Below are positions 338 to 47,142 of a DNA stretch of 64,000 bases, piece after piece. The stretch spans positions 41,850,001 to 41,914,000 of the forward strand of contig NC_047017.1 of the NCBI RefSeq assembly GCF_902652985.1, read 5' to 3'. The first letter of the stretch is position 1. Every line of letters begins with the position of its first letter. Below the pieces are notes generated by a model that saw only the letters and a list, made by a program, of their open reading frames with translations, did not search any database and was not told the DNA's origin. The position numbers were made by a program, and so were the translations under genes. This stretch comes from Pecten maximus. Taxonomy: Eukaryota.

Positions 338-3300
338 CTTGACCAGTTGCATTAACGTATTCCAGAGCCTTTTGGACGTCATCGTCTTTAGTGACATCAA
401 GCTTGATCACATGAAGCCGGTCCGACTGACGTGCCTGTAACACTTTGGCCCCCGGACTCTCCAGGCTGAGGACCCCGGCATATACTCTATACCCTAAGTC
501 GTATAGTCGCTTGGCGAGTAAGTGACCAAATCCTAATTAACCAATATTGAGTGAAAAAAATATAATTAGACATGAATGACAATGCAAACTCACAATAACA
601 AATTAAAGACTATGCAAATAAAGAACTACACAAAATATACTGTCATTATCAATTATGTTTGTTTCATCACTTGAACTAATAATTTGCTTTTCTAATTGGT
701 CAGATCATTTTTTATCATACAATAAAGAACGCCATAAGATATGTACATATATGTTTACGTTTGATGCCATGCGACATGTTCAATATGTTTACGTCATTGA
801 TTCCAGTTCCACACGTCGTTCACCATAAAAGTTTAGAACACCTTGCAGAAAAACCTTACCCTCTAGATAAAACTGACATAACTACACTATATATTTCATT
901 GACTCCAACTCTGTCACCCGAGTTATGAAGTGAGAAATGAAGCCGTTAAATACAAGACCTCAAGTAGATATAATCATAAAATCATGTCACTCAATATAAA
1001 CAGGTATATAACGCACTACATAGGAAGCCGAATATGTAATATGTAGGAAACGATGTCATGTATTACATACATTTTAATGAAAGCCTGGCAGTAAAATCAT
1101 ATCATTCATATTCACGCTTAACATTCTACGAGGTAGATAACAATATTGGACCATGTTTGTTAATAGGACGCTAAACAAAATAAACCAAACCAAATAGATA
1201 AATTACGCCAACATACACCCTTTGTAGATATCACCGCCCTTACACACTTGATTTGTATACTACCCTATTACTACGTCACACCTGATCTGTATCCTATCCT
1301 ATTACTACGTCAGACTTGATCTGTATCTTACCCTATTACTACGTCACACTTGATCTGTATCTTACCCTATTACTACGTCACACCTGATCTGTATCCTACC
1401 CTATTACTACGTCACACTTGATCTGTATCCTACCCTATTACTACGTCACACTTGATCTGTATTCTACCCTATTACTACGTCACACTTGATCTGTATCCTA
1501 CCCTATTAAAACGTCGCACCTGATCTGTATCTTACCCTATTACTACGTGAAACTCGATCTGTATCTTACCCTATTACTACATCACACTTGACCTGTATTC
1601 TACCCTATTACTACGTCACACTTGATCTGTATCCTACCCTATTACTACGTCACACTTGATCTGTATTCTACCCTATTACTACGTCACACTAGATCTGTAT
1701 CCTACCCTATTACTACGTCACACCTTATCTGTATTTTACCCTATTACTACGTCACATTTGATCTGTATCCTACCCTATTACTACGTCACACTTGATCTGT
1801 ATCCTACCTAATAACCACCTCACACTTGATATGTATCCTACCCTATTACTACGTCACACCTGATCTGTATCCTACCCTATTACTACGTCACACTTGATCT
1901 GTGTCTTACCCTATTACTACGTCACACTTGATATGTATCTTACCCTATTACTACGTCACATTTGATCTGTATCCTACCCTATTACTACGTCACACTTGAT
2001 CTGTATTCTACCCTATTACTACGTCACACCTGATCTGTATCCTACCATATTACTACGTCACACTTGATCTGTATCCTACCCTATTACTACGTCACACCTG
2101 ATCTGTATCCTACCCTATTACTACGTCAGACTTGATCTGTATCCTACCCTATTACTACGTCACACTTGATCCTATCCTATTACTACGTCACACTAGATCT
2201 GTATCCTACCCTATTACTACGTCACACTTGATCTGTATCCTACCCAATTACTACGTCACACGTGATCTGTATCCTACCCTATTACTACGTTACACTTGAT
2301 CTGTATCCTACCCTATTACTACGTCACACTTGATCTTATCCTACCCTATTACTACGTCACACTTGATCCCTATCCTATTACTACGTTCACACTTAGATCT
2401 GTATCCTACCCTATTACTACGTCACACTTGATCGGTATTCCTTCCCTAATTACTACGTCCACCCTTGATCTGTATCCTACCCTCTTACTACGATTCACAC
2501 CTTGATCTGTATCACTACCCTATTACTACGTTCACATCCTGATCTGTATCTCTTACCCTATTGACTACGTCACACTTGAATCTGATCCTACCCTACTTAC
2601 TCCGTCACACCTGATCTGTATCCTACCCTATTACTACGTCACACCTTTGATCTGGTATCCTTACCCTATTACTACGTCACACCTTGATCTGCTATCCTAC
2701 CCTAATTACTACGTCACACTTGATCCTGTATCCTACCATTTACTACGTACACTTAGATTCTGTATCCTACCCTATTACTTCGTCACACCTGATCTGTATC
2801 CTACCCTATTACTACGTCACACTTGATCCTATCCTATTACTACGTCACACTAGATCTGAATCCTACCCTATTACTGCGTCACACCTGATCTGTATCTTAC
2901 CCTATTACTACGTCACACTTGATCTGTATCCTACCCAATTACTACGTCACACTTGATCTGTATCCTACCCTATTACTTCGTCACACCTGATCTGTATCTT
3001 ACCCTATTACTACGTCACACTTGATCTGTATCCTACCCAATTACTACGTCACACTTGATCTGTATCCTACCCTATAACTACGTCACACCTGATCTGTATC
3101 TTACCCTATTACTACGTCACACTTGATCTTATCTTACCCTATTACTACGTCACACTTGATCTGTATCCTACCCTATTACTACGTCACACTTGATCTGTTT
3201 CCTATCCTATACTACGTCACACTTGATCTGTATTCTAGCCTACTACTACGTCACACTTGATCCTATCCTATTACTACGTCATACCTGATCTGTATCCTAC

Positions 3301-4333
3301 CCTTTTACTGCGTCACACCTGATCTGTATCATACCATATTACTACGTCACACTAGATCTGTATCCTCCCCTATTACTACGTCACACCTGATCTGTATCCT
3401 ACCCTATTTCTACGTCACACTTGATATGTATCCTACCCTATTACTACGTCACACTTGTTCTGTATCCTACCCTATTACTACGTCACAACTGATATGTATC
3501 CTACCCTATTACTACGTCACACTTGATCTGTATCTTACCATATTACTACGTCACACTTGATCCTATCCTATTACTACGTCACACTTGATCTGTATCCTAC
3601 CCTATTACTACGTCACACCTGATCTGTATCCTACCCTATTACTACGTCACACTTGTTCTGTATCCTACCCTATTACTACGTCACACCTGATCTGTATCCT
3701 ACCCAATTACTACGTCACACTTGATCTGTATCCTACCCTATTACTACGTCACACTTGATCTGTATCCTACCATATTACTACGTCACACTTGATCTGTATC
3801 CTACCCTATTACTACGTCACACCTGATCTGTATCCTACCCAATTACTACGTCACACTTGATATGTATCCTACCCTATTACTACGTCACACCTGATCTGTA
3901 TCCTACCATATTACTACGTCACACCTGATCTGTATCCTACCCTATTACTACGTCACATTTGATCTGTATCCTACCCTATTACTACGTCATCACATATCTG
4001 TAGATTACGAGTAATGAAAAAAAACTTGTTTTTTGTATCGATGACTATATAACAAACAGATGAAAACTGAAAACATTAACACTTCTAAGACGAGAAGCAA
4101 ACTTCTCTACTATTCTGTGTTATTCGGATCCTGTGTACTGCCTTACCTGTATCACAACCTGTGATGACCACGCCTTTTCGGCCGATGTCCAACTTCTGCC
4201 GAAAATTGTTTCTGGTTAGTCTCAATAAAATGTAGACCAGTGAAATGGCCAGCAAATATTTCCAGTAAATAAACAGAAAATATACATTCAATAAAAGTAA
4301 ATATAAAACGCATGTGTTCTCTAACGACAACAT
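338..4333 (-). CDS. SDR paralog A (BDH1/BDH1L-like, SDR9C), partial: exons 1-2 only, rest off the left edge
   Basis: Exon 1 4333-4147 (MLSLENTCVLYLLLL...GVVITGCDTG, 187 nt) and exon 2 532-338 (FGHLLAKRLYDLGYRVYAGVL...YVNATGQ, 195 nt). GT-AG sites in phase 1, with the TGxxxGxG Rossmann motif split by the intron. Exon lengths match the other paralogs. Confidence 0.88.
1243..3990. repeat. 34-bp minisatellite (CACACTTGATCTGTATCCTACCCTATTACTACGT), about 80 copies, in intron 1 of SDR A
   Basis: Direct tandem periodicity; indel-rich stretch around 2290-2760. Confidence 0.97.
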
Positions 4334-7052: not shown

Positions 7053-7077
7053 CTATTATTATTATTATTATTATTAT
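7053..7077. repeat. (TAT)n microsatellite
   Basis: Direct reading. Confidence 0.9.
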
Positions 7078-7422
7078 AGCAGGAAAAAACGCATTAACGC
7101 CAAATTCCACGAAGATCTTTCTAAATTATCGATCTCATCAGAACACGTTCCGCCAATAGCATTCACATAGATTACTGCAATCGTGTTATCTGATTAAAAA
7201 CACAACTGAAGATAGGTGAGAGAAAGAAGAGACTGAAGAGTCAGGTAGACAGCTTTGAGTTCTAGTTCAAAACGTTGATTTGATGGTGGGATTTCGATTC
7301 CGACCATCTTCCGCCTATCTGTAGTTTTATCAGCATATAAAGCCAGCATGGGGGAATGACATCTATCCCTTGCCAAATGGCCAGATGAATTCCCTCAAAT
7401 CCTGAACGGGGTTCAGTAACTG

Positions 7423-9608: not shown

Positions 9609-12097
9609 TCAACGGGTAAACGATCCACATCCGGTCATCTTCTCAACGATCCAATCCGAAATAAATTCGGGGAGAATTTTATAAACTTTTGCAAGAATCT
9701 GTAAAGATAATGCAATGTGGATTAGGAACCTCTTACAAACAAAGTGTAGTTTTCTGTAAATAATACAACATTGCAATAAACAGCCTGTGATTTCAGGACG
9801 ACGTATAACTTTTATGGTGTATTTCTATTCTGTTTATGAGAAATTGTATGGAATTGACCTACGATTTAAACATGTTATATTGACTGGTAATTTGGAAAGT
9901 CATTGATGGCGTTAATATCTCACCGCTAGCTTATCCAGGGCAGAGAAGGAGCCACCGATCATATAGCGGGCCATTGGTGTTACGTTAATAAGGGAGTCCT
10001 CTATAGCGTTAATTACTGGATCTGCTGACATGGTCCCTATCATACTTGTATCGTTCTTCTTCATCATTTGGTAGATATCGTCAAAGTATGGACGTCCGTA
10101 GGTCTGCCTGACGTCATCAGATGCCTGTTCCCACATGTAGTCTATCTCCTTCTTTAATCGTTTCCGCTGTTCAATATTGGAATATCATATTCGTTATGTT
10201 TCTACTGATGTATGTCTTGGCAATATGCAACAACGGACAATTCATCACCGTTAATGAGATTTATGTCACATTGATTAATTAAAAAGTGTTTCATACTTTA
10301 ATGAGGGATTTATTTGATTGCATTACTAAACTGCAAGGAGCGGAAACGCTTGTTTTCAATATAGTCCTGTTATTAAGATGAATCAAACCCAGCTATATAT
10401 ATAATACTTGACGAGCGAGGTCACCTGTTCCGGACCAAATACTGATGTGGCTGCACTGAATTGTCCAGGTTCAATAATTGAGACGTTGACACCAAACTTC
10501 TTCATTTCAAGTCTGAGGGAGTCACTCAGGGTCTCTATACCATATTTGGTAACACTATACACGGACGCACCGGGCCAGGAAAACCGACCCCTTACGCTAG
10601 ACATGTTAACAATCCGGCCTGTAAAAAAACCCAGCAACACACAAATGTTTATGTTTGTGAAAGGACGTTATTGACATTGCGACATGTTTCAGACGCTCAT
10701 ATATGGTGGGACCAAATTACATTTCTGTGAAATCACTTTTTATGTATTGCTCAATGTTTATCCTAACAAACATAGCCTTGATGCATTGAATAATCCTCGC
10801 TAGACTAAAATTGTGCAACTTAACAGTCTGTTTGAGCGAGACTGTACTCGAAACCTGGATTAATAATAATAAGTTGTCTATGATGAGATAATACATTTGA
10901 TGGAACTGTTTCCGAATGTAAATGTTTCAAGTGCTCAGTATAGGGAGACAAATTGACACATATTCTTAATGAAACCTTAATGCGATCTGATAAAACAATC
11001 ATACGGTAATGTTTGATCTGATTTAATTTAAGGACTGTAACTGATATACAAAGTGATATATTTAGTATACAACTGTAACCGGATGCATTTAATATTTATA
11101 TTTTTAGAAAACAAAGTAAAATGAAATTGAAAAATTCTTAGCACCTAAGTCCTTGGGCCTCCTTCTGACACACATACAATGTTTTGGTTTCTACTTGTCA
11201 TTAGAATGGATATATGTGAAGCAAAGTATCTAAATACAACAATTAACTTCAGATGTCCGTCAATAAGTTAGAACTTCTGATTGTATATCTCCTTTTGAAT
11301 TTGATTATTGCATTCTATTTTACATTTTAGACTAAATATGTCGATTTATCTTGTTCATAATTTATCTTTACCACTCATGAGCAATAGAAACCTGCCGTCT
11401 ATTAACACAGTGTTCATGACAATATGTACACTTCAAATATTTCGCTATCACAATCTCTATATCCATATTGTCCTGGAAATATTTACCTTTAGACTTCCTG
11501 ATAAGGGGGAGGAATGTTTTGATGACTCGGATCATGCCGTATAGATTAACCTCGGCACATTTCTTGTATTGATCCACAGTCGCTAACTCGACGTCACCAG
11601 GAAAATTCATTCCAGCATTGTTGACGATGGCCCATAATCCTGATTGAAAAAAAGCAGTTAAACGAATCAGTGTTTGTTCCACCTTTATACTATTAACGAT
11701 AATTGCATAAAAAAAAATTCTACCAGGAAACAGATAATGTTTTTAAAGTGTTCAGATATAGGTTGTTCCTTAACATTACCTCATTTACTTATTTACAATT
11801 CAAAACACTCTAGACACTACCAGTGCCCAATCCATGATCACATACATTGCATCCACACACATACAATTCAAGGGTAATAAGCACATGCACATACGCTCAC
11901 ATATATTTGCATTCACAGCACAGACGTACTTATACTTACAATAACAAAACAAAATCACCTTCATACACACTCATACTAATACAAAAAACTACCATACATA
12001 TACTCACGCACATTTGTATAGACATATTCTCATACTAAAGGCAGTAAATTTCAAAATGTAAGTACAAAAAGACATCAAAGGAAAAGAAAAGCGTACA

Positions 12098-12132
<35 letters not shown>

Positions 12133-14005
12133 GAATCAACACGCCACTACTACAACACATACACATGCACCTTTGATAGTATTCACACTTCCTTGTATGC
12201 AAACACTTTAATTTTCCCGTCTTTACCTATAAACCATTTCAGTACATTTTTGAGGTAAGATAAGAGCCTCAAAGATTATGATCATTGTTCTTTTTCTAAT
12301 AATTCTTTGAATCATTCTTATTCGTTTTTGACATTATCATTTATATAAACACTATAGCTTTTATAGCAATACCGTTTTAATTAATTAATCCATTTACTTA
12401 TACGTTCATTTAATTACATATGCATTCATTTCATATATCATGTTTCATAATTTTATCTAGCTACTATATATTCAAAATAATATGATCATGATCTACTTAT
12501 ACTGTTTTCTTTTTCGTTATTTTGTCCACATTGCTTAATTACTTACTAATAGTATTTTAACTTTTGCGTGTATGAGAAACTTTTATCGTATTTCATATAA
12601 TTTCGACATTTCCAAATATACCATTTACAAGAGAGTAGAGCAGCAAAGAGAAGAACGGACAAATTAGCATTTCCTTTATATCCCCGAAACACAGTTTCTA
12701 ATACGTTAACATAAGAATTCCTTACGTAGCAGACATACATATAGGGAAAGGCTGACATGTGATTATTTTTGAGGGAATTAAAAATAAAACTAGCAAGTAA
12801 ATATAGAGCCACTGGACTGATAAATGATACACGTTAACAGCTGATAAACAAGTGCATATATAGGGGATTGAAGGCAATAATATTCGTGAACACATATTGA
12901 TTTTTAAATTTTAACATTTTGCTGCACTAAGGTTCTCTAAAGCGTGATGACGCACGGACATTATAATATACATTAGCCGATCCCACTGATGTACTCTTGA
13001 GAACGTTTTACTTACGAACATTATAGCATACCTTGTCCATTCGCATTAACATACTCCAGAGCCTTTTTGACGTCGTCATCTTTAGTGACATCAAGCTTGA
13101 TCACATGAAGCCGGTCCGACTGACGTGCCTGTAAAACTTTGGCCCCCGGACTCTCCTTACTGAGGACCCCGGCATACACTGTATACCCTCTGTCATCTAG
13201 TCGCTTCGCAAGAATGTGACCAAATCCTAACAGCACATTAACCAACATTGAGTACAAAAAATGAATTAACAACTTAATTATTAAACAATGACAAAATCAC
13301 AATAACACATTTATGACTCTGACAATAGAAACATACACATACATTATACTGCCATTTTCAATTATAGATTAGTTATATATTGTCAACATTTGAAGAAATG
13401 TTTTTTTGTCAAATCGATGTTCATCATACAATAGATCAGATTTAAACATTTATGATTGCTTTTGGTAGATGTTCAATATATTTCACGTCCTTTATTCATG
13501 TGTAGAACACAATGCAAGAAAAACCTTAACCTCCAAATAAAACTGACAGAGCTACCCTATATAGTTCAATTCATTGATTCTTTATCTGTCACCCGAGTAA
13601 TGAAATAATAAAGGAAGCCATTAAATGCAAGGCGCAAAGTAGTTACCACGTCATCACGTTTATAAAAATTAAGATAAATTCAAAAAAAAAAAAAAAAAAA
13701 ATCAGTGGGTTTCAGTATCAGTGAATACGTCACAAATGGATGTAAATCGCACTTACCCTGACAAGTGAGAAGTAAAATCTGTTATTCTGTGTTATTCGGA
13801 TTCTGTGTACTGCCTTACCTGTATCACAACCCGTGATGACCACGCCTTTTCTGCCGATGTCCAACTTCTGCCGCAAATTGTTTCTGGCCAGTCTTAATAC
13901 AAAGACGACCAATGAGATGACCAGCAAATATCTCAAATTAGTATACACAAAATATATATTTAGTAGAATAAGACATAAGGCAGATATGTTCTCTAACGAC
14001 ACCAT
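9609..14005 (-). CDS. SDR paralog B, intact, 353 aa, BDH1/BDH1L-like membrane-anchored dehydrogenase
   Basis: Exons 14005-13819, 13226-13032, 11639-11487, 10618-10425, 10166-9924, 9698-9609; all GT-AG and phase-consistent (1062 nt). Motifs TGCDTGFG, NNAG, catalytic S (NMSSV), YSVTK, EPGQF; ends MTGCGSFTR*. Confidence 0.93.
12099..12128. repeat. (TC)n microsatellite
   Basis: Direct reading. Confidence 0.95.
12546..12720 (-). mobile_element. Probable 3' fragment of an L1/Tx1-type non-LTR retrotransposon in intron 2 of SDR B
   Basis: LLSCKWYIWKCRN resembles the K..IW..RN C-terminal motif of L1/Tx1 ORF2; the segment is absent from paralogous introns. Confidence 0.45.
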
Positions 14006-15436: not shown

Positions 15437-18400
15437 TCAAAGTGTAAACGATCCACATCCGGTCATCTTCTCAATGATCCAATCCGAAATAAATTCGGGA
15501 AGAATGTTATAGACTTTGGCAAGAATCTGTAAATATAACAAGTAAAATAGTTTTTATTTTTAGAACCTTTTACATAGTGTAGTTTTCTATTAACCCATCA
15601 TATAACTTACAACATAAAGCCTGTTATTCACTTTGCTGCATTACGTTCTGTAAATCACATGACATTGCAATTAACATCATGTAGTTTCAGGAAGACGTAT
15701 AACTTTTATGGTCCATTTCCATTTGGATTAAAAAGAATTGCATGTACAGTTGTGCGGAATAGAAAGTCAGCTGTAATAAGACATTGGATGGTGTTTATCT
15801 CACCACTAGCTTGTCCTATGATAGAGAAGGAGCCTCCTATCATATAGCGGGCCTGTGGTGTTACGTTAATGAGGGAGTCCTCTATAGCGTTAATGACTGG
15901 ATCTGCTGACATGGTCCGGCCTACATTTGTTTCTATTTCCTTCACCATCTCGTAGATAGCATCAAAGTATGGACGTCCGTAGGTCTGTCTGACGTTGTCA
16001 GATGCCTGTTCCCACATGTAGTCTATCTCCTTCTTTAATCGCTTCAGCTGTTCAATATTAGAATATTATATTCGTTATTTTTCTACTCAAGTATACCTTG
16101 ACAATATGTAACTGCAAAATAATACCCATTATTTTTGTGATTTACGTCACATCGATTACTGTGGAAAACATGTTTTAATACTTTATTTCGATATCTATTT
16201 ATTATCAAATTATTACAGTAATAGGAACGGAAACGTTTGTTATCAATAGAGGTAATTTCAATGAGATTAACTAAATCAGCTACAAACATATCCATATAAC
16301 CAAAACAAACGAGGTCACCTGTTCTGGACCACATACAGATGTGGCTGCACTAAATTGTCCAGGTTCAATAATTGAGACGTTGACACCATACTTCTTCATT
16401 TCAAGTCTGAGAGAGTCACTCAGAGTCTCTATACCATATTTGGTAACACTGTACACAGAACAACTTGGCCAGGAAAACCGACCCCTCACGCTGGACATGT
16501 TGACAATCCGACCTGCATAAATAAAACCAAACCTGATATTCATTTTTGTGAAAGGAAATATTGACATCATGACATGGTTCTGGCGCTTATTTATTGCGGG
16601 ACCAAATTACTTAAAATCGCTTTTATCTATTTCTCAATGTGTATTCTAAACTAAAAAATGCTTCATGCATTGAATAATCCTCTCTACACTTAAGTCGTGC
16701 AACTTAACAGTCTGTTTGAGCGAGACTGTAGTTCAAACCTCGAGTTATAGGTACAGGTTGTCTATGATGAGATACTACATTGGATGGAACTGTTTCCGAA
16801 TATTAATGCTTAACTGCTCAGTATAGGGAGACAAATTAACATTTATTCTAAATGAAACCTTAGTGCGACATGATAAAACAATCATACGGTAATGTTTACT
16901 TTGATTTATTTAAGGGACACACTTAAACCGATTTATAAAGTTATATATCTAGTAAACAACTGCTACCGGATGCAATTAATAATTTTTAGTAAATCCACAG
17001 TGAAATAAAATTTGGCAACAAATTGTCAATAATTTTCAGAACACTGGCGTCCATATGTTTTCAATTCTTAACATGTAAACACTTGACTGCCCTTTTTTCT
17101 TAGTACACATACATTTTTTTGGTTTTCTACTTGTCATTAGAATGATTATACATAAAGCAAAATATCTTAATACAACCATTTAATTAAGACGTCCGAAAAT
17201 AAGTTTGAGCTTCAGATTAATAATCTCCTTTTATTATAATTATTGCTTTATCTTTTTCATTCATTTCAAGACTAAATATGTTGATATACCGAGCATATCA
17301 GTTACCTTTACCACTCCTGAACAATAGAAGCCAACCCTTGTTTAACATAATCTTCCTAACAATATGAACCTTCAAAATGTTTGATATTCAAAATATATGT
17401 TTATCATATAAACATTTACCTTTAGACTTCCTGATAAGTGGGAGGAATGCCTTGATGACTCGGATCATGCCGTATAGATTAACCTCGGCACATTTCTTGT
17501 ATTGTTCCACAGTAGCTAACTCGACGTCACCAGAAAAATAGATTCCTGCATTGTTGACAATGGCCCATAATCCTGATAAAACACGAGTTAGATAATTGTT
17601 ACTACCTACATGTATGTACTGCTAGTGTATATAACGTTAGAGAAACCCTCTATACCAGGATAGAGATTTACTCAGTCAAACCTTGTCTGATCTCACTGAT
17701 GTAATTATGTTAGACCTTGTCCGGTCCATTGATGTACTTTAGCGGGCGTTTGGCATACGAATTTTAAGGGGCATCTAAACAGCAAATCCAGCCAAAACAG
17801 TTGATATTTAACAAGGCTATAAATCCCTACTAGAGTGCAATTTAATAGAAGTAACTTGATACAATTTTGATATGTATCGAGTCAAACTGTGGGCCTTGTT
17901 GTTGACATCTAATTTGTTCAGTTGTTTGTAAATTTCAACAAAACATCAGAAAAATGTATGTTTCAGGGGGACATAATTAACTCATTTGTATCGCATTTAT
18001 TGTGCAAAACAGTCATGTCTTTTTGCTCACAAGAGTCTAAAGCACAAAGTAGGAACATTGGTTTGACTAGATTTGGCTTTATGATATGTATTAACACTGA
18101 TTTTATTTTGACCTTGAAATGCAAATGGCGGTTGTGAATAATATCACACAATTATGGCATATAAGAAGGTATTTCAAACGTCAAATATGCTCTTATTAGA
18201 TACTATAAAGAACTCTAGACATGGCAGGAAGACTGTTTTTAGGAAAAATTGTTCCTCCGTTCAGTTTGGGGTAAAAGATATATATTTCTGAAAAAGGCCC
18301 AAAACTCACCAGTTTGACAATTTGTCTTAAAAAGGTCATTCTTACTATAATCAGATGTCTGAAAAGTATGATATAGAAGCATTATTAATGGTTGAAATGC

Positions 18401-21400
18401 CCCCCTTTATGCCATATTTGTGTAATATCATCCACAGCCGCCATTTGCATTTCAAGGTCAAAACAAAAGATGTGTTTATACCTACATAAAGTCAAATCCG
18501 GTCAAGCAAATGCTCCTACCATGTGCTATAGACACTTGTGAGCATGACAGCTGGGCTATTTTTCATTTTTGGTTATATTTGTGACTTAGAATTATTCCAT
18601 GCTACAACGTACCACAAAGTAACTCTATAGAAGAAATTGTTAACATCTGCATCAAATTAGTTGTGATTTTAAGACACTACATGTCATAACAAACATTTTG
18701 GTATATTATATGACTATTTTTGTGCAAATTTTAATATATTTATTCGTGTTTAAAATTCAACATTATTCTGCTATATAGATGACCCTTAAATGATACCTTG
18801 TCCGGTGCCACGGAGTACTCTAGAGTACTCTATTATCGACCTACGGACATTACGTTATACCTCGACTGGTCCCAGTTAAGTACTTAAGAGCATCTTTGTA
18901 GTACGGATGTTATATTATACCTTGTCCAATCGCATTAACATGCTCAAGAGCCTTTTGGACGTCGTCGTCTTTCGTGACATCAAGCTTGATCACATGAAGC
19001 CGGTCCGATTGACGTGCCTGTAACACAACGGCCCCCGGACTCTCCTTACTGAGGACCCCGGCATACACTGTATACCCTCTGTCGTATAGTCGCTTCGCAA
19101 GAATGTGACCAAATCCTAACAACATATTAACCAACACTGAGTAGAGAAATAAATTAATATATAATACAAAAATAAATAAAAAGGGGCCCCGATTTACAAT
19201 GCAAACTCACACTAACACATTTATGACTCTGCAAATAAAGAATTACACATAAAGTATACTGTCATTATGAATTATGGATGAGTTATATTTTCATTAAATT
19301 AGTTTCATAATACAATAAAGAACGTCAATCATAAGACTCATACGAAATATCTTTGTATATGTAAGATTCAACCCGAGTTTCAAAAATGAGTTGCAAAACG
19401 GAGTCTTGAACATTTTGTGATTCCGAAGATAGAATATACGTATCGTTCAAACACACATAAAAGAGTCTTTTTGTCTCATATCACTACAAAACTTCTCGTA
19501 TAAGCTATCTCTTGACCATTTATTTTCTTCATTTTTAAAATTTCTATATTTGGCATTTTATTTGGGCCTTTCTGTGGCCAATCATTGATAAGCCTAATAT
19601 TTCAGCTATTCTAAACAACATGTTTTTCTGGGCTCATATAATTAACGTGGGTCAAAGGTCACAGGGCGTAAAATGCAAGTGCTACCAAGTATCGTCAGAA
19701 TCAGATACATGTTACTTATAAGCTACTGTGGTGCTATCAGTTGCACTCTGTCACTCCATTTGCCTCAGCCTTCAGGCCCTTAAGTCGGGTTTAACTAGAT
19801 TTTTCTACCTTGTTTAATTAGACTTGTGGTTCACGAATGAGGTTGATTAGATCTGAAAATCTACTATGTTCTCCGTCATTAGACAACTAGGATTCCAAAG
19901 GGTCAATCATTTGTTTTGATCCCAATGCGGGGCAGGAATACCCTTGAAAATCTATAACTGGGTGATTTTTTTGAAGTGTCTCGGTCATTTTTCCACCAAA
20001 ACTGACAAGACTTTAAGTGCTGTCATCGAGACCTATTTTTTCCAGTTTCTTTACATTATTGTCAAACTGTGTCTCTAAACCTGACACGCATTTAACAGAA
20101 ACTTCAAAAATATCTATTTTACTCCAATATTGAATTTATATTAGCCCGAAAAATGAAACTTGCATTTGACTTCTTGTGAACTTTGACCGCTTGAGCCAAA
20201 AAAAAAATAAGAAAAATTCTGATGTTTGGAATAACATACCATATGCAGCTGACATTGAAGTATCTTCCTGCATAACATTAGCCTAATCACTGAATGACCG
20301 CAGAAGGCTCCTATTGGCATCCCTCCTTTCATTCCTTCAATTATTAACGAATGTAAAAATTTAACTTGACTTGTCCATGACACATTGTCAACTTCTGAGA
20401 GAAAAAAAACCCAACACTTTGAAACACCAATGAGGAAATACGTTTTCCAATTTTACATACAAAATTTCAGGCCCCTGTGTTGAATTGTACGGAATCATTT
20501 TCACGGTTTTTTTTTTGTTTTTGTTTTTTGTTTGTTTGACATTTGGTTAAAAAACATTTTTTGATGTTTTTAATGTAACGTCGAATCATTGCCCGGTGGT
20601 TGTGTGAGGGTAAGTTAGTCTACTGTATTATTACAGTAGGCCTGTACACTAACAGCGATATTTTGCCCTAAATCTCTTATAGTTTTACCTTATAGTCTTA
20701 TCTTATCGTATCTTTTATTTTAGCCCCAAAGGATCAGGTGTGCTAAACTTGGCATGCTGCCATATATCGACAAGATCTCGGACGAGTTTGAAAATGGGAA
20801 TTTTATTTTTCAAAGATTTGTATAAAATTGTGCAATTTTGTAGAAAATGGACTACTCTTTCAGCCATTTAACTGGTATCAATTTTCTCTGTTTAATTTCA
20901 AAATAATTATTTCCCCTGCTCCATGAACATTTTATAACCTTTTTTAGATGTCACTTTCTTTTTTATAATCTACCAAAATGGCGTCATCAAAAAATTTGCC
21001 CTCCAATTAAATTTTAATTTCTCAAAAACGGAAATTATTTCAATATCATGAGGTGAAAGAGTTAATTTTCGATTTCAGTTGCGAAATAAGATCTCACATT
21101 TCAAAGAAAAAAGTTTTAAATTCAATGAAATACAAAGGAAATAGAACAAAAGTTGCCATGTTAATGGCACGTGGTTGTAAACCGCGTTTGCGACAGGCAG
21201 AATGTGAGTTAACGGGAGACAACTCGTTGAAACAAATTTAGTATTTGTTTAATTTAATAAAGCTTTCGAAAAACGTTGCAGAGTTTGGGGCCTGTATGTT
21301 CGTGTCGATTGTTTCCTTTTTTTCAAATAAACACACAATAAAAAACGGACGTGTCCGAAGCTGCACCAGGCTAGATATAAGTTATGCATCTGAAACAGTT

Positions 21401-32229: not shown

Positions 32230-34870
32230 TTAGCGGGTAAAAGATCCACATCCAGTCAGCTTCTCAATGATCCAATCCGATATAAATTCGGGAAGAAAGT
32301 TATAGACTTTAGCAAGAACCTGTAAAAGCAGCAACAAGATAATTAGGAGCTATCTTTACGTATCGATTCAAAGAAATCATGATCTTCGCGTTGCTTGACA
32401 TATGATATTGACTTAGATATCTTACCGCCAGCTCGTCCACAACAGAGAAGGATCCTCCGATCACATAGCGGGCCTTTGGTGATACGTTAATGAGGGAGTC
32501 ATCTATAGCGTTAATAACTGGATCTGCTGACATGGTCCGAGCCACTTTCAATCCACTCTTCTCCATTCCCTGGTAGATAGCATCAAAGTATGGACGACCG
32601 TAGGTCTGTCTGACGTCATCAGATGCTTGTTCCCACATGTAGTTTATCTCCTTCTTAAATCGTTTCATCTGGTCAAAAAATAGTTTACGATCAAAATAGC
32701 TCTAGGAAGATTCACATTCACATTTGTTAATGTGTAAAGAATTATTATATAACTATATAACAATATAAATAATAGCTGTTATAATGCAAAAACATACATT
32801 TTCGAATAAATACAGATTATGATATTGACGTGGGTTGAAAATAGACTTCTATACGTTAAAGTATCTGTGATATCGTCACCTGTTCCGGGCCATTGATTGA
32901 TGTGGCTTCTGTAAACTGTCCGGGTTCTATAACCGATACGTTGACCCCAAACTTCTTCATTTCCAGTCTGAGGGAGTCACTCATTGTTTCCATCCCGTGT
33001 TTTGTTACAATGTACACCGAATCACAAGGCCATGAATATCGACCCTTTACACTTGACACGTTCACAATCCTCCCTGGAAGGTAGAAAACAAATACAAATT
33101 TCATATAAATATAAGCACATCCTCACTAATAAAATAAATATATTCAGGGGTTCATAACATACCATGTGTATCATGGTATTTGAAAGAAGCAGCCTTTGAC
33201 CTTCAATCTTGACCGATGATCAGCAAAGTCGTAGTAGGTGTAGAATGTCATGCTGTGATGTAATGATGTGAATATGAACTATGTATTCAAGAGATATCTT
33301 GTCTCTACTTCTTATTTCGAGCGTGATTAATCTGGCATTTAATCCTGACCAATGTCCCCCAAAATCTTATACGTGTAGAGTTGATTACCATATAAACCTT
33401 TTATTAAGTGCTGAGAATAAATATCATATAGTAGCATTTTCCTGATAAAAATGAAGGTTACATAAATGACCATAATTGAAATGTAAGTTTTTACTCTAAG
33501 CCATTCCTTTATAGCGATCACGGTTAGATGATCACTGACCAAAGTTTAAAGCATCCAGTAATTCTGATCCTTGGAAGATGTACCTTTTGACTTCCGGATC
33601 ATGGGAAGGAACGTCTTGATAACTCGGATCATGCCATACAGATTGACCTCAGCACATTTCTTGTATTGATCCACAGTCGCTAACTCGACATCACCAGGAA
33701 AATTGATTCCAGCATTGTTCACAATGGCCCATAATCCTAAATGAAATATAAAAGCAAAATGAAGTAATCACTTATACGCGAAAAAAGACAACTAATATAC
33801 AGATGGGACTTGCCTCTAAGGGGAGATAATCGAGTATTTAGAATTAGAGCAGAGCAATTTCGAACAAAACATTTAGGGACCGTTGGCCAGTCTAAAACAC
33901 AGAATGAGGTTAGAATAATGGATTATCTAATGTTAATGTCAATCAATCTTTATGTATGCCATACGTAGAGACATTATATTATACCTTGTCCTGTCGCATT
34001 AACATACTCCAGAGCCTTTTGAACGTCATCGTCTTTAGTGACATCCAGCTTGATCACATGAAGCCGGTCCGACTGACGTGCCTGTAACACTTTGGCCCCC
34101 GGACTCTCCTTACTGAGGACTCCGGCATATACTGTATACCCCAAGTCGTATAGTCGCTTGGCGAGTAAGTGACCGAAACCTTAACAAAGTTTATCAACCG
34201 TCATTGTGAATCCATGTTTAAAATAATAGCTATTGTGGTGAAGCAAAGCCATATATACATCAAAATTGGTGGTTAGACCTACGTAATCTATTTCTCTAAA
34301 CGAAGAATTTGTCAGTGGATTTCAACATAAGTGGAATATCACCGGGATATTTGTTATATCTATCCATTTTATCAAAGGACGTATTCAGTATTTCTATATT
34401 CTTCTGTGACTTCACTTAAGTATACCATGTTGCCGTTGGCATTATTCCTGTAACGATTCGTTCGCGATTCCATCCATTTGACATGACTTGTAACTCCTAG
34501 CATCTACTTAGGTGTCACTAAAAGTAATTGGCGTTTCATCTACGATGCGTTGTATATATACACATATCACTTATCTGTCTCTTCTCTAAACATTTATTTT
34601 ACAAAAAGACATGTCATTGTATAAAATCGTGTTTGTGCTATTCGTGGTTGTAACGGAATTTGTTTATTGGTGACATGCCTTACCTGCATCACAACCTGTG
34701 ATGACCACGCCTTTTCGGCCGATGTCCAACTTCTTCCGGAAATTGTTTCTGGTTATTCTTAATGCAAAGTAAACCAGTGAGATGCCAAGCAAATATCTCC
34801 AGTGGATGTACACAGAATACACATTCAGTAAAATAAAACTTAAAACACACGTGTTCTCTAACGACACCAT
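32230..34870 (-). CDS. SDR paralog E, intact, 353 aa
   Basis: Exons 34870-34684, 34179-33985, 33736-33584, 33073-32880, 32668-32426, 32319-32230. Motifs TGCDAGFG, NNAG, YIVTK. Confidence 0.92.
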
Positions 34871-37022: not shown

Positions 37023-40000
37023 TTAGCTGATAAAACATCCACATCCAGTCAACTTCTCAATAATCCAATCCGATATAAATTCGGGTAGAAAGTTATAGAC
37101 TTTAGCAAGAACCTGTAAAAAAATGACAGGTAAATTAGAGCTATTTTTACGTTTCGATTCGAGGAAATCATGATCATTACGTTGCTTGACATATGATATT
37201 GGCTTAGATATCTTACCGCCAGCTCGTCCACAACAGAGAAGGATCCCCCGATCACATAGCGGGCCTTTGGTGTTACACTAATGAGTGAATCCTCTATAGC
37301 GTTAATGACTGGATCTGCTGACAACCTTCGATCATTAATTGTCTCCATTCCCTTGTAGATAGCATCAAAGTATGGACGTCCATAGGTCTGTCTGACATCC
37401 TCAGATGCTTGTTCCCACATGTAGTCTATCTCTTTCTTAAAACGCTTCATCTGGTTTTAAATATTATATATAAATAAAATAAATATTTTTACAATCAAAA
37501 TAACACAAGAAATGATGCATGTTTCATTTGCCAATGTGCCAGAACGTATAACATAACTATCTCAATTATATAGCTGTTATATATTTATAATGTATAAGAT
37601 TTGATATACTCTGTACAAAACATACCTGCAGCAATTCAGTTTGTTATAAATACATATTATGGTATTGAGTTAAAAACTGCCGTCTATACATTACATCACA
37701 GTATCAGTGATATCGTCACCTGTTCCGGGCCATTAATCGATGTGGCTTCTCCATACTGTCCGGGTTCTATAACGGAGACATTGACCTCAAACTTCTTCAT
37801 TTCAAGTCGGAGGGAGTCACTCATGGTCTCTACCCCGTGCTTGCTAACAATGTACACCGAGTCACCGGGCCAAGAATAGCGACCCTTCACACTTGATACG
37901 TTTACAATCCTACCTCCTGGAAGCCACAAAACAAACGCAAATGGAAGTGTTGTATAGTAGATTTTTTCGATGATCACGGACATTACACGTCCTAGCCATC
38001 AAAAGCCAATAATGTTATATTTGAAGCATCTATCTTTTACTTTATTATTAGACTGAACAGGTGACATATTTGGTTTTGCTTTCTGGCTTTCTGATCCCTG
38101 AAAGGTATACCTTTTGACTTCCGGATCATGGGAAGGAACGTCTTGATAACTCGGATCATGCCATACAGGTTAACCTCAGCACATTTCCTGTATTGGTCCA
38201 CAGTCGCTAACTCGACGTCACCAGGAAAATCTATCCCAGCATTGTTGACAATAGCCCATAATCCTGATTAAAATATGGCAGTAAAATACACATATCCGTA
38301 TATTTTGACCAGTGACCTTCTTGTCTTTTTGGAGGTAGGGGTGGGTTGGGGTGAGGTTGGAATGATGGCATTTTCCCTACAGGTAACACAGGACCATGAC
38401 CATACCAATTAGGTTTGTTTTTAACTACGTAGTGTCAACTCCTTAAAAAGTTACCATCTGGACCTTTCTTTCCTGTTTACCATTGCTTCTAGTTTCGTAC
38501 CAATGCTTTACATTGAATATCCTTATTGTTATGATGTCAACAATGAATTGTTAAAATTATGAATTAAATGAAATATATCAAAAATGGATCTTATCTGTAA
38601 CTGTGAGCTCAAGTCTAAATACAAACCCAAATAGTTGTAGTTCCCACTAAGAGTTGCAAATTCAGCATCACAAGCTTGTGTGTAAAAATAACGTTCAGAG
38701 GTTAACTAACTCTTTCTACCATTGTTATTAATGAGAAAAAATATGCCATGTAAAATGATTCATGTGATAATACATTGAATTTCTATTCCTAATGAAGTTT
38801 AAAACATAGTACTCCATAGTGAAACAAGATTTTATAAACACTGTCTTTGATGCTTAATTGTGTCACGGTGGATAGGTATTTGCCTCGACAAGAGAGAGAA
38901 GAGGGAGAGAATGAATTAACAATTCCGGGAAAATTGCTCAGGCCGATTTTAAGAAAATATAACCGAATATAAGACACATTCCCTAGCAGAGATTAACATT
39001 GTTTTAGTTTCTTGACATAAGCAATCCATAGAGTCAGGGAATGATGAAATATCATTTGTCAGAAATACATGCTAAAGCTCAAGGTAGAAATACCTATTGA
39101 GGGGATATTAATTTACTCATTATACTTTATCGACCCCGTTGTCTAGTGTAACACGTATGTATATTTTAATAATCAATAATTGAATTATATGCATATTATC
39201 TAATTTTCAATAAACGGAATTAAGTAAGACATTAGGATAATTTTTTTGACAATGTTAAATAATCGTCATACATTACATATAGAGACAGTACATCATCCCT
39301 TGTTCAGTCGCATGAACTTACTCTAGACCATGTTTGTGGTAAGGATATTGTATTATACCTTGTCCAGTCGCATTAACGTACTCCAGAGCCTTTTTGACGT
39401 CGTCATCTTGAGTGACATCAAGCTTGATCACATGAAGCCTGCCCGACCGACGTGCCTGTAAAACTTTGGCCCCCGGACTCTCCTTACTGAAGACCCCGGC
39501 ATACACTGTATACCCTCTGTCATCTAGTCGCTTGGCGAGTAAGTGACCGAAACCTTAACAAGGTAAAATATTCATCATTATTGTTAATATACACGAGAAA
39601 TTGTTTTGGTGTGTATCGAAATTATACTTTGTATCGTGATTGGTCGGTAGAACAATATGGTCTTCTACTCCCAATGTCACCCCGACAGATGTGAGGTCTC
39701 TTTTTAGCTAAAATGAGTCTTGAATTAGTTATACAATGTTGACATTGGTAGTGGTCGTGTGCCGTCCATATTAATGGGATTACATCCAACTGGCATGACC
39801 TAATATCTACTATCTATCTGTGTATTCATTTCTTTTGGAGTAATGGATTACTGCATTATGCTGTTAAATGTAAGCTTTCATATTGATTCAATCAGGTAAT
39901 ACACTCCGACGATTAACAATCTTACTCTAACGCAAGTCTAGAAACTTGATCATGCCATCCATCTAACTAAATAAATTACGTAATATTTCGACAACATGAA

Positions 40001-41108
40001 AAATTAAAAATAATGAATAAATAAAAGAACTCCGATATTGTAAATAGAAAAACTATTATGGAAAGGGTAGGATTATCTATTGGAGCAGGCACCTAACTTC
40101 GCTCGCACAATCCCTCTCTCGTCCTTCCTTACTCCAACAATGTTAGAGGTTTTACACGGCGAGATACCTTTGACAGGCGCCGTGTAACCTCTAACTGCCC
40201 ATAGCTGATTTTCCCGATGCTGACGATGAAATTTTCAAAGTTCGTATATTGAAAAAAATATAGCGTGTCAACTTACATTTAAATGATCAACGGGGTCCAA
40301 TATATATTTCTTTCCATAATCCAATGATTAAATGAGAATAATTTCGTAACAAACACAAATTATGAAGTTTTCTTCTTCCGAAGCGGAGCAGAGCTTAAGC
40401 AGACAATACTGCCGGTAGTGATAGTAGAAATACCACGTGATTTGCCGGTTGATACAAAAATGGATTACAACCAATCTCCTACAAGCGGAATACAACAAAG
40501 TCCGTATCATTTCGTTCCGTTTGAAATAATCAAAACTATTTTGTATCAACCTTTAGACAGCCATTTTTTAAAACGACTAGAAAAGTGCTACAACGACATG
40601 GGAATGTATTTTGTGTGTTCTACACGGTATTATACTATATATTTGTGTCTGTGACATACATATGGGATATATATTGCATACATGATACGTAGACATCGTT
40701 GTTATGACCTGTCAACCACTTAAGTGTTTTTTTCAAGCATATTTCGTTGCGCCCAGATTTCGGGCGGAAACTGCATCAAAGAATTAGTGCTTCAGAAATA
40801 AGAGGTCGCAGTCGGCAAAATAATATCCGATAGAAAAAGAACCGCCAGCGGCCTCTTATGTTATAGGAGTAGTCCTTCCTTAGATGATCCGTGCTATTCG
40901 TAGTTCGGTGACATGCCTTACCTGTATCACAACCTGTGATGACAACGCCTTTTCGGCCGATGTCCAACTTCTGCCTGAAATTGTTCCTGGTCAGTCTCAA
41001 TACAATGTAGACCAGCGAGATGACCAGTAAATATCTCAAGTAAATATACAGAAAATACACATTCAGTAAAATTAAACACAAAACACACGTGCACTCTAAC
41101 GACAGCAT
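37023..41108 (-). CDS. SDR paralog F, intact, 350-351 aa
   Basis: Exons 41108-40922, 39553-39359, 38263-38111, 37916 (or 37913)-37720, 37450-37217, 37112-37023. Motifs TGCDTGFG, NNAG, YIVSK. An in-frame upstream ATG at 41156 is also possible. Confidence 0.92.
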
Positions 41109-42736: not shown

Positions 42737-43153
42737 ACTTTGTGAACATGAAAACTAAGTTAGATTAAGATTATTTTTCCTTTCTTCTTGAGGACGTGAT
42801 AATCTGTATATTGCTCTTTATCTATGTGCCTTACTCTGCCATTCCTAACATCTGTTCTTATGTAAGTTGTGTACACAATAAAAAAGCACAATTATAATTG
42901 GAAGTCGTATTCAAGTTCATGCATCTAAAAAATTAGAAAAATAATGTTTTTTGAATCTATATTTTATTTTCAAATGCTTGTTTGGGACTGTATACTTCAA
43001 GTTTTGTAGAGTAAATAATATCAGTAGGAGCGAATTAAAACAGCCATATACGGACATAAGGTCTTGCATGCGTTCCACGGGTCAGGTGATACTGGGTATA
43101 ACGGTCATGCTGAAAATATAACATCTATCATATTTTCTTGCGTGAGCAAGATC

Positions 43154-46100
43154 TTATTGTTCCGGAAAGGATGAGTACCCGGTCATCTTGTCAACGACGA
43201 TATCTCCGAGCCAGCTAGGTAGGTAACCATAGACTCGCGCCAGGATCTACAAAAATACAAAAACAATGCAATGAAACATCACCAATTTATTGCAATATTT
43301 TTACAAAGACAAACATATTATCATCATCGTGACATTATTAAATCCTTATTATCATTGTAACCACAATCATCATCACGTTCATTCAGACTTTAACACACCA
43401 ACATATACATATAAGCTGTATACGTTTTCAGGTGCTGTGGAACAGTCACACATAGCTATCAATACCGACTTCACCGAGGACAAATTATGTCCCGTATTTC
43501 TAAGATGAATCCCGATGAGTTCAGGACTCTGGTTGCCGTCTGGTTTGTACAAGGGGAGGTAACTTGTACAAATTGTAGTTGATGCGACATTGGAAAGTCG
43601 CCTACTCTTAGGTTGATGAAAATGGCCCTCACCACTCGAACATTGTTTTTCGTTTCGAATTTTTCCAATTGGCAATTATCTAAAATGAAAGTAGAATATT
43701 GCTGATCGGTTCTGGATTTCCGAGAAAAATGCCTACAGAAATGGCCACTGTGGTTGAAGTTATTATTAGGTAAACCTAGCTTGTCTCCGCAACGGATGAT
43801 TCCGATAGCAATAAAGAGTAAACATCGTTTAATCAGTCGATAGTGGAACGCTTGTACAATTTATATAACATTAACGTGTGATTAAACAAATCACCGGAAC
43901 AGATAAGAATAAGATCATCATCATCACCATCACCATCATCATCATCATCATCATCATCTCTATACCTCCCAGAGCAGATCACAGGTGGTTACGTTTTATT
44001 TACTAATATGTCTTGGCTTACAGCGTAAACGTCAAGGCGATACCCTGGTACCAGGTATCTGATGTTTGGGTGTTCAGTGACGATGGCGTCCTCCAGTGCG
44101 TCAGTAAGTGGGGCCATAGATAACGTCCCTTGGTTTCCGTTTGTTCCTTTCAGATTTCGATAGACGTAGTTTCGTCCATATGTCTTCTTAACACTCTCCG
44201 AGGCGTGTTCCCACATGTAATCCGTCTCCCTCCGGATCCTCTCCATCTAAAACAATGGTGTAAATTGTTTTCTTTATTCAATTTACGTGTTTCATCCGTA
44301 AAGAGAATTGGAACTTTTTTGTTATAAGTTGTTGTTATCAAATATCACAATAGAGATGAAACTGAAAGTATCTATACAAAATATTTATTTTATTATAAAA
44401 CCAAAATCACATCATATGTAACCTACATTTTAATTAATTAAAACGAAGGTAAATGGCCTTTCCTTTCTCCATCTTGACTTTGTTTATACGTGTATCCTAC
44501 ACTTTCTGATTTTGACACCTGTGGTACCTGTAGATATGCTCTCTCGTTGTGTTTGCCACTTGTCAAACACGTATGCATTTTAAAATATTGAAACTACTGC
44601 CAATTGTTCCCCTCCAACATTCTTTAGGTAACCTTTATTGTCATGACATCAACTGCAATACAGTATGTTCCGGGACATTGATTGACCTTCAGCCAAGTTT
44701 AGATACAGTCAAACTTACCGTGTCTTAATAGAATGTATATGTCTTGAACTGAAAACAAAAATCTGTTCAACGATAATATTAATCCATCATTACCATGTCT
44801 GGACTCCAAATCGATGTGGCATCCACAAAGTTTCCTGGTTCGACAATCACCACCTTCACTCCAAACTTCTTCATCTCCATCCTGAGCGAGTCACTCATGG
44901 TCTCTAATCCATGTTTAGTGACATGATACAAAGACTCACTTGGCCAGGAAAAACGCCCTCTGACACTCGAAACGTTTACAATCCTTCCTAATATAAAGAT
45001 ATATTTATATTTGTATGTAAAATCGTATCAAAGATACATTAATGGACCAAGAATGGACAAGACAAAGAAAAACCACAAAGAGAGAGAGAGACAGAGCATA
45101 CATACCATACACCCATTTATAATATACTCGTTCAATAAAGATGCCGAAAGCAAAAACTTACGGCTATTTACTCTAGATCGTAAGATGAATGACAAATGTT
45201 ACGGATGAATGGCAGAAAACTGATCTTCAATAAATGTGGTGAAGAGATCAGACAGTATATGGAATACATGACTTACCTTTAGACGCTATGGACAGTGACA
45301 GTATAGGAATGCATGACTAACTTTTATATACTGTGGGTAGTAAAGGTAGTAAAGGTATATGGAATACATGACTAACCTCTAGACATTGTAGACAGTGACA
45401 GTATATGGAATGCATTACTGGCCTTACGGCACTATGGACAGTGAAAGTATATGGAATACATGACTTACCTTTAGACACTATGGACAGTGACAGTATATGG
45501 AATACATGACTTACCTTTAGACACTATGGACAGTGACAGTATATGGAATACACGACTTACCTTTAGACACTATGGACAGTGAAAGTATATGGTATACATG
45601 ACTTACCTTTAGACACTATGGGCAGTGACAGTATATGGTATACATGACTTACCTTAAGACACTATGGACAGTGACAGTATATGGAATACATGACTTACCT
45701 TTAGACACTATGGACAGTGAAAGTATATGGTATACATGACTTACCTTTAGACACTGTGGACAGTGAAGGTACATGTATATGGAATACACGACTTACCTTT
45801 AGATTCGCGGATGAGCGGCAGGAATGCCCGAATTACCCGTATCGGACCGTACAGGTTGACATCGGCACATTTCTGGTATTGTTCTATTGTCGCTAATTCT
45901 ACATCTCCTGGCATATTGATCCCAGCATTATTTATCACCGCCCACAGATCTGGACAAACATATAACATTTCATTAAATCAAATATTAAAATTGATTTATA
46001 ATTAAATCTGTAAGGTATGTATTGCAAATAGTCAATATCAATTTAAAAGCGAGATATTTCGAGCTTCTTGCATTGAAAATTAAATTTTGTAACTGGTTAG

Positions 46101-47142
46101 CAAAATGTGGTCGAAAGACTATATCCGTTTTGAAAATAATTACTTCTGGTAAGTATTAATAGAAAAAAATGAGTAGGGTCTGATATTTTTTCTTTTAATA
46201 CTAACCAGAAACAGACGCCTGTGGTCTAACCCGATGCTTCTGTGATACCCTTGTGACATGGTATGGTCATTTAGTCGGTATCATTCATAGTACAATGTAT
46301 AGATTTGGGTTTTTTTTTTGCACTGGAAGAACTATCTTTTTAACACGATTGCTAAACATCTAAAAGAGTCGAGTTGTTAAAATTTGATTTGGTGGCAAAT
46401 GTCATGATGTAGAAGACACTGTTAAAATGTGTTGATCTTATATATTGATCCGTTTTGAAGATATTGACAAATATATTCACTGCCTCTATATAACGTACGT
46501 GAATGTCTTACAATTCCAGTACATACAAAAACTAGGTCACGCCGTAGTAGATAGTCTAATCTGTGCCGCGTACCTACACGTTACACATGTGGCGTACCCT
46601 ATGGTATCTTGTATTACCTCCTCTATTCGTCACATACTCCAATGCTGTGTTTACGTCCTCTTCCTTCGTGACATCCAGTTTGATGACATGTAGGTTGTAT
46701 GAATGACGAGAACGTAGGGCCTCGGCTCCGTTGCTGTTTTCATTCAAAACCCCTGCATACACAATAAATCCTTTGTCGTCTAAGCGCTGGGCGATGTGGT
46801 TTCCGAATCCTAGTTAAAGATATATATCTACACGTTCTCAAGAAAAGAAAAAGTGAAGAAAAAATGTAAATAAATGCTATCAGTAACTTGATTGTCTGGT
46901 AGACATCACTTGTCGTGAGTATACGTGTACTTACAGGAAGGATATCGTACTGTACCTGTGTCACAACCCGTTATTAGAATCGCTTTCCCATCGACGGTCA
47001 GTCTGTGTTTCACTTTGGTCAGTCGATAACCTATGTACAGTAAGACTAGCCCTAACGACCACTTCCAATAAACAAGAACGACGTAAATATTTAACAGACA
47101 AACCCCTACAAACAACAGGAATTCTGCATGGTAGATCTCCAT
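43154..47142 (-). CDS. SDR paralog G, divergent, intact, 347 aa
   Basis: Exons 47142-46956, 46809-46618, 45949-45797, 44987-44794, 44246-44022, 43246-43154 (1044 nt). Motifs TGCDTGFG, NNAG, NVSSV, YHVTK, EPGNF; same intron positions as A-F. Confidence 0.92.
43914..43957. repeat. (CAT/CAC)n microsatellite in intron 5 of SDR G
   Basis: Direct reading. Confidence 0.9.
45250..45803. repeat. 46-bp minisatellite made of the exon 3 end plus 5' splice site of SDR G
   Basis: ACTTACCTT recurs at 45271, 45463, 45509, 45555, 45601, 45647, 45693 and 45739, and at the true donor 45791. Confidence 0.93.

Follow-up and report, generated by a model that had tools for sequence, protein, structure and literature searches.

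How can tandem copies of an enzyme gene keep two old versions of a predicted substrate pocket when they appear to overwrite one another in the cofactor-binding half? This question is raised by a cluster of short-chain dehydrogenase/reductase (SDR) genes of the scallop Pecten maximus, located in a window (i.e. the whole stretch of DNA analysed) of 64,000 nt on contig NC_047017.1 of assembly GCF_902652985.1 (G000:C3:41,850,001-41,914,000). Six-frame scanning and exon modelling detected six complete six-exon SDR genes (G1-G6) and exons 1 and 2 of a further gene (G7) on the minus strand of the window. Modelling of the adjoining stretches extended the array leftward by the remainder of G7, G8, an orphan frameshifted exon 5-6 fragment and G9, giving nine genes and a broken fragment; all 45 modelled introns were of the GT-AG type. 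A preliminary description of this DNA had reported a seven-gene array, of which the tandem arrangement was borne out but the count fell short due to the leftward extension. Its limits were exact, the right one (47142) coinciding with the ATG of G1 and the left one (338) with the end of exon 2 in G7, and every motif that it quoted matched the six genes. The SDRs of the array are intact and transcribed, have hydrophobic N-termini and comprise two pocket types. The explanation considered probable is that these genes form an SDR9C array on the BDH1 side of the family, encoding NAD enzymes anchored in the endoplasmic reticulum (ER) that interconvert hydroxy and keto groups on fat-soluble molecules, and that selection guards the two old pocket types from gene conversion. 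The two types likely let the copies handle different fat-soluble molecules.

Genes G2-G9 split into a K type (G2-G4) and an R type (G5-G9), which differ at positions 188, 191, 200, 233, 234, 238 and 239 and in loop length at position 281. Both types were present in Argopecten, and this pair of pockets, common to two scallop genera and separated by ~8 residues, is what the present analysis adds. Four-fold-site differences between K and R were 0.20, 0.19, 0.49, 0.60, 0.21 and 0.34 for exons 1 to 6, respectively, as compared to 0.16-0.24 within types. Comparisons of G1 with the rest were flat (0.64 vs 0.58), indicating that the peak in exons 3 and 4 is no local mutation-rate effect. These two exons (32880 to 33736, minus strand, in G3) exhibited high K vs R divergence at both synonymous and amino-acid level and contain the catalytic Ser-Tyr-Lys segment and most of the mapped cavity residues. 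Exon 2 clustered by species, with the three Argopecten proteins forming one clade (99/98). An Argopecten clade was rejected on exons 3-4 (approximately unbiased test, p-AU 0.021) and an R clade on exons 1-2 (p-AU 0.0003). Residues shared among the Argopecten proteins lay mainly at positions 74-132 (11 of 13), those shared by type mainly in exon 4 (5 of 7), and similar pocket variants (i.e. Met188, Tyr139 and the short loop) occurred in Argopecten and Pecten. At the intron ends, K vs R divergence was 0.51-0.60 in all five introns and divergence from G1 was 0.50-0.57; as introns are about equally diverged everywhere, intron barriers do not single out exons 3-4 and conversion looks exon-limited. 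Exon 4 is equal in length to exon 2. The homogenisation pattern can be read directly from these comparisons, and as to its cause it is consistent with gene conversion from which the pocket region is shielded; PMC3924837 describes a local peak of divergence in the face of conversion as a signature of selection. Selection on the dimer interface was discarded as a cause of the peak, the DHRS9 interface positions (G3 149-168) being nearly unchanged between types when inspected by eye. Among the literature matches listed, no conversion-protected pocket dimorphism was found.

Variation in the predicted pocket was examined by transferring the cavity residues of DHRS9, as given in PMC12538056, to the array via sequence alignment. 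Amongst G2-G9, 10 of the 13 mapped positions were variable as compared to 84 of the 290 remaining positions outside the anchor (Fisher p=0.0007; circular-shift control 0.013), and six of the seven unambiguously aligned positions varied. The ratio of nonsynonymous to synonymous substitution (omega) was 0.59 at the published cavity positions and 0.21 elsewhere (p=4e-4). This enrichment remained in exons 3-4 alone (omega 0.66 vs 0.12), without G9 and without G7 (p=0.02), and for a broad pocket set the effect persisted without the exon-5 loop (p=0.002). Of 127 variable sites, 36 lay in the broad pocket loops and 33 in the N-terminal anchor, so that the earlier claim of variation concentrated in the pocket holds as an enrichment but not as the site of most variation. 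Ratios of pocket to core differences were 3.6-3.8 among paralogs, 0.9-1.15 in four G1 orthologs and 0.8-1.4 in five orthologs of a dispersed relative, the paralog ratio being inflated by the homogenised core. Faster divergence of the pocket among paralogs was therefore upheld, but much of the contrast between conserved core and variable pocket that had been described arises because the core exons of two old gene types were homogenised, a feature that the description had not seen. Within types, pocket omega was ~0.35-0.9, values that suit relaxed constraint or occasional fine-tuning better than they suit recurrent positive selection.

Codon models were run on eight sequences with an in-house implementation rather than codeml (M0 branch proportions, F3x4, 8 beta classes). 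If pocket residues were under recurrent positive selection, as in an arms race with dietary toxins, a class of sites with omega above 1 would be expected. A single whole-gene tree produced such a signal (M8 vs M7, twice the log-likelihood difference 10.6, p=0.005), exceeding all 14 null simulations with exon-level mosaicism (two significant, maximum 8.8), and the exon-5 loop sites 283 and 285 were amongst those flagged. The top site, however, ahead of 283, 285 and 353, was position 75, a two-state Arg/Leu difference outside the pocket, and the signal disappeared on exon-specific trees (M8 vs M7 p=0.92; M2a vs M1a p=1), where no site class had omega >1 although the approach picked up nine of nine simulated sets in which 5% of sites had an omega of 3. 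Exon-level mosaicism accounts for part of the single-tree signal, whilst the per-exon trees may be conservative. Single-tree site models were set aside as evidence of selection because the exon trees conflict with them; the M7 vs M8 check suggested at the outset came out negative on exon-specific trees, and single-tree testing of such arrays can mislead. No pocket set had an omega significantly above 1. For the broad set omega was well under 1 (p=6e-6), indicating that the pocket is still constrained; for the exon-5 loop it was 0.9-1.3, indistinguishable from 1, and this loop varies among orthologs too (0.33-0.44). Recurrent positive selection is accordingly regarded as improbable.

The absence of an omega >1 class and the near-neutral exon-5 loop would agree with birth-and-death under relaxed constraint, whereby the copies would be largely redundant (i.e. 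dosage or expression splitting), the pocket loops would drift as a result of this redundancy and exons 3-4 would have escaped conversion by chance. Turnover of this kind is visible in the degraded fragment and in the C-terminus of G7, which is seven residues shorter than that of G6. Such an account is nevertheless rather unlikely, given that exon 2 was converted and exon 4 retained in two genera alike, that the broad pocket set is constrained and that Met188, Tyr139 and the short loop recur in Argopecten and Pecten. Several observations weigh against the explanation considered probable. With six exons and two genera only, escape of two exons by chance is possible, and exon 3, at 153 nt, may convert less simply through being short. 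The R clade on exons 3-4 is weakly supported (66/58), rejection of a Pecten-only clade on these exons is borderline (p=0.049) and trees of exons 5-6 lack clear branching. The codon permutation (p=5e-5) ignores linkage between sites. The K and R names were taken from an exon-4 motif and the broad pocket set was drawn with the alignment in view, so that there is some circularity in the figure of 8/8 diagnostic sites in pocket loops; of these eight sites only two fall in the published cavity set, and of the 13 mapped cavity positions, six are alternatives between which the alignment does not decide. Omega in the anchor was 0.48, close to the pocket value, and relaxed constraint is therefore able to give such values. 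Hydrophobicity is no more than moderate in the G3 and G4 anchors, and exon 1 is missing from several database models of array genes.

Under the favoured explanation of two guarded pocket types, an early duplication would have produced G1 and a second gene, which, as the trees suggest, split into K and R before Pecten and Argopecten separated. Each type would then have multiplied through unequal crossing-over. Within each species, exon-sized conversion would have made the copies uniform in exons 1 and 2 and in most of exon 5, whereas the differences in exons 3-4 were retained, selection likely guarding the two pockets against conversion. The resulting intact SDRs would convert lipophilic alcohols and ketones, of dietary or endogenous origin, at the ER.

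All nine genes retained the sequence features of classical SDRs, i.e. the TGxxxGxG cofactor motif with its Asp, NNAG (NNAA in G4) and the catalytic tetrad (Asn159, Ser186, Tyr199 and Lys203 in G3 numbering), a family defined in addition by its Rossmann fold. Three proteins were scanned against Pfam and all matched adh_short (E 1e-40 to 1e-43). The structure model of G3 had a mean predicted local distance difference test score of 94.5, and its nearest solved structure was DHRS9 (9B2F; Foldseek E 4e-26, target template-modelling score 0.86), which ranked first amongst solved structures by fold and, by ~30 orders of magnitude, in sequence. An Asp in the GCD motif is associated with NAD preference. 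This residue (Asp61) was present in nine of nine genes and aligned to Asp38 of the NADH site of DHRS9 (PMC12538056); the array enzymes are accordingly predicted to prefer NAD. N-termini were hydrophobic, with a best 19-residue Kyte-Doolittle mean of 1.84-2.51 in seven genes and lower values in G3 (1.42) and G4 (1.29), and had a net charge of -1 to +1; a long helix was predicted at residues 2-43. Five mitochondrial-type vertebrate BDH1 proteins exhibited charges of +2 to +6 and hydrophobicities of 0.09-1.16, a contrast that supports a hydrophobic, non-mitochondrial N-terminus, as had been proposed. The proteins are predicted to be ER-anchored.

Family placement was assessed with a tree of 69 rows, rooted on the RDH cluster, in which seven scallop rows were partial and avian BDH1L and HSD11B2/17B2 lay outside the sample. 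An earlier tree with three bacterial outgroups had a long-branch warning and an implausible root and was kept for shallow clades only. The array nested in a 35-row mollusc/brachiopod clade (99/96), outside the 16-row core BDH1 clade (95/99) of vertebrates, arthropods, echinoderms and amphioxus, which contained no mollusc sequence in this sample. Anchored and mitochondrial vertebrate forms made a single clade (98/100), indicating that a mollusc gene can be no specific ortholog of BDH1L; the anchored rows are presumed, from names and N-termini, to be BDH1L/Bdh1a. A constraint joining the array to these anchored rows was rejected (p-AU ~1e-92). Sister placement of the mollusc clade and core BDH1 was without support in the free tree but allowed when constrained (p-AU 0.71, 14.6 log units above the free quick tree), so that the array genes would be at most co-orthologs of BDH1 plus BDH1L and not BDH1L itself. 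An Arg preceding Ser-x-Tyr, a signature defined from this alignment rather than from a publication, was present in seven of seven mitochondrial and nine of ten anchored vertebrate sequences and in none of the nine array genes. Named database matches of the array proteins were BDH1-like or RDH. Membership of SDR9C on the BDH1 side, as given in the preliminary description, thus agreed with sequence, fold and tree, the closest relatives being RDH-cluster and BDH1 proteins, whereas its label of BDH1L-like proved too loose, given the single vertebrate clade and the lack of Arg-Ser-x-Tyr. Further tandem SDR9C arrays, of RDH-cluster type and with another exon layout, were observed at C18:8.00-8.05 Mb (L023-L027, at least four genes) and C11:12.41-12.43 Mb (L028-L030, at least three).

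The array genes are already annotated, under a misleading mitochondrial ketone-body name. That they encode 3-hydroxybutyrate dehydrogenases is suggested by these automatic names (i.e. 'mitochondrial-like') and is extremely unlikely: the array has neither the basic, non-hydrophobic presequence nor the core-clade position that characterise mitochondrial BDH1, and residues that are near-invariant in the mitochondrial BDH1 pocket (pairwise difference 0.02) are not retained. As the substrates of those anchored SDR9C enzymes that have been characterised are retinoids, steroids, oxylipins or carotenoids (PMC3184775, PMC12538056, PMC12421482 and PMC12010460), it is very likely, by analogy, that at least one array member acts on a lipophilic alcohol or ketone of any kind. 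Activity of at least one member on xanthophyll carotenoids is possible but doubtful. Both pectenol and pectenolone occur in scallops (PMC3093257) and form a BDH1L-type pair of hydroxy and keto compounds, which makes carotenoids a fair candidate although nothing singles them out, and carotenoid 4-oxidation is one plausible option among several.

A more specific version of the favoured explanation would make at least one member a carotenoid 4-hydroxy dehydrogenase that acts after a P450, as BDH1L does (i.e. pectenol to pectenolone and 4-hydroxy- to 4-ketoalloxanthin), with pocket types for different algal xanthophylls. Occurrence of both pigment forms in scallops speaks for this role, as do performance of the same step by BDH1L at the ER (PMC12421482 and PMC12010460), the permitted grouping with core BDH1 and the lack of a mollusc sequence within that clade. 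The array, however, lacks the vertebrate Arg-Ser-x-Tyr and RYxP signatures, the trees contained no avian BDH1L, and equally good candidates, also members of the molluscan clade, are present in the same genome on C3 at 35.6 Mb and on C1 at 8.5 Mb. No P450 family match was obtained with Pfam amongst 17 non-SDR open reading frames (ORFs) of the window, those of the flanks being inspected by eye only. This role is hence viewed as unlikely. More speculative still, and less probable, is the extension in which the genes are molluscan carotenoid 4-dehydrogenases whose K and R types form an opsin-like specificity pair (e.g. for different algal xanthophylls), held apart across genera by selection despite conversion and switched by a few exon-4 residues. 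If the array did act on carotenoids, it would account for the formation of the keto group, the missing step towards pectenolone and the colour of scallop tissues. Among the matches listed, no publication on this array or on bivalve BDH1-like enzymes was found, subscription journals being outside the search.

The individual genes, all on the minus strand, are ordered from right to left in the window. G1 (43154 to 47142; exons 47142-46956, 46809-46618, 45949-45797, 44987-44794, 44246-44022 and 43246-43154) is the divergent head gene and has orthologs in other scallops. It is followed by three K-type genes: G2 (37023 to 41108; exons 41108-40922, 39553-39359, 38263-38111, 37916-37720, 37450-37217 and 37112-37023), with a short exon-5 loop; G3 (32230 to 34870; exons 34870-34684, 34179-33985, 33736-33584, 33073-32880, 32668-32426 and 32319-32230), identical to database protein P0121; and G4 (24128 to 26939; exons 26939-26753, 26185-25991, 25745-25593, 24984-24791, 24565-24332 and 24217-24128), with a short loop and NNAA for NNAG. 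The R-type genes are G5 (15437 to 22155; exons 22155-21969, 19115-18921, 17572-17420, 16512-16319, 16047-15804 and 15526-15437), with one extra base near 15815 in the assembly, G6 (9609 to 14005; exons 14005-13819, 13226-13032, 11639-11487, 10618-10425, 10166-9924 and 9698-9609) and G7 (338 to 4333), of which exons 1 (4333-4147) and 2 (532-338) lie in the window and exons 3-6 to its left; G7 carries Met188 and Arg193. G9 is a mosaic of a G7-like 5' part (90-93%) and a G8-like 3' part (91-97%), a composition that fits the expectation for unequal crossing-over. The orphan copy of the G6 exon 5-6 region (G000:C3:41826068-41826197, L005) begins mid-exon, just after a ~60-base tandem repeat. Identity between the duplicated blocks is 91-97% and a frameshifting deletion is peculiar to the fragment; G9 and the fragment are hence more likely to stem from real duplication than from mis-joined haplotypes. 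Annotation counts for genes of the G2-G9 kind were three in Argopecten, two in Mizuhopecten and one in Ylistrum. A third divergent gene type (P0137/P0229) was observed on the scaffold of the Mizuhopecten array and had no close match in the Pecten assembly, where it is lost or missing.

Transcription was examined with RNA contigs, which carry no tissue labels and are unfit for ranking expression; uncovered parts were not taken as absence. Spliced contigs connected predicted exons in G2 (runs X8 and X22), G3 (X8, X14 and X22), G4 (a single exon 2-3 joint, X22) and G5, whilst G1 and G6 were supported by loose contig ends bearing an adjacent exon, that of the G1 exon 5-6 junction being in X8. The extra base in exon 5 of G5 (~15815) was missing from DNA run X4 and RNA runs X7 and X12 and is therefore likely an assembly error or a rare allele; with the frameshifting base absent from these runs, G5 was ruled out as a pseudogene. 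Chimeric RNA contigs joined G4 exon 4 to G3 exon 5 (24791/32668; X8) and G2 exon 1 to G3 exon 2 (34177/40920; X8 and X22), and are either assembly chimeras via shared words or chimeric alleles of other animals.

Repeats were observed in several introns. A ~1 kb element in G5 intron 2 (17763-18790) carries TTAA at either end, short terminal inverted repeats and, in its interior, inverted arms; its summed contig depth was in the tens of thousands as compared to ~40 nearby, it was missing from one X5 contig and a second copy lies ~88 kb left of the window. These features suggest a non-autonomous DNA transposon that is polymorphic and present in very many copies, with ends presumably of Kolobok-like type. 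A second repeated element in G2 intron 1 (40130-40870) was deeply covered in RNA-type runs and had numerous loose contig ends. Tandem repeats of ~34 bases occur in G7 intron 1 (~1250-3300) and likewise in G9 intron 1, and repeats of ~44 bases in G1 intron 3 (45270-45790) repeat the splice-donor sequence. Beyond the array, scattered exon-like ORFs of an adjacent gene lie on the plus strand (56899-63575), with an EGF-like domain at 63342-63575, the single match at threshold in the Pfam scan of the 17 other ORFs.

The array may be compared with four known systems. DHRS9 (SDR9C4; oxylipin/retinol/sterol dehydrogenase, PDB 9B2F) has 33% identity to the array and a root-mean-square deviation of 2.5, its catalytic tetrad and cofactor residues aligning with those of the scallop proteins; it is an ER enzyme with a large hydrophobic cavity (PMC12538056). 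Unlike the array, DHRS9 belongs to the RDH cluster (PMC3184775), and the scallop RDH-cluster genes are separate, on C11, C13 and C18. Vertebrate BDH1L and fish Bdh1a, the ER ketocarotenoid dehydrogenase, resemble the array as SDR9C proteins of the BDH1 side with a hydrophobic N-terminus and the cofactor-motif Asp, vertebrate BDH1-group proteins being 39-47% identical to it. The array differs from them in its separate mollusc/brachiopod clade and in other pocket and C-terminal motifs, and BDH1L has a partner P450. The primate red/green opsin pair, as treated in PMC3924837, likewise exhibits a divergence peak at a functional exon that is common to species, with other parts homogenised within species. 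In contrast to the opsins, the scallop introns are diverged, conversion is apparently exon-limited and eight genes rather than two are involved, with a functional difference that is putative. The amphioxus Bdh1 expansion, 14 genes in tandem groups according to PMC3184775, is comparable to the array in that BDH1-side SDR9C genes multiplied in tandem within a single filter-feeding lineage; most of its members lie outside the core BDH1 clade. The amphioxus genes arose independently. Tandem expansions of this family are already known from them, and the scallop array belongs to a known enzyme family.

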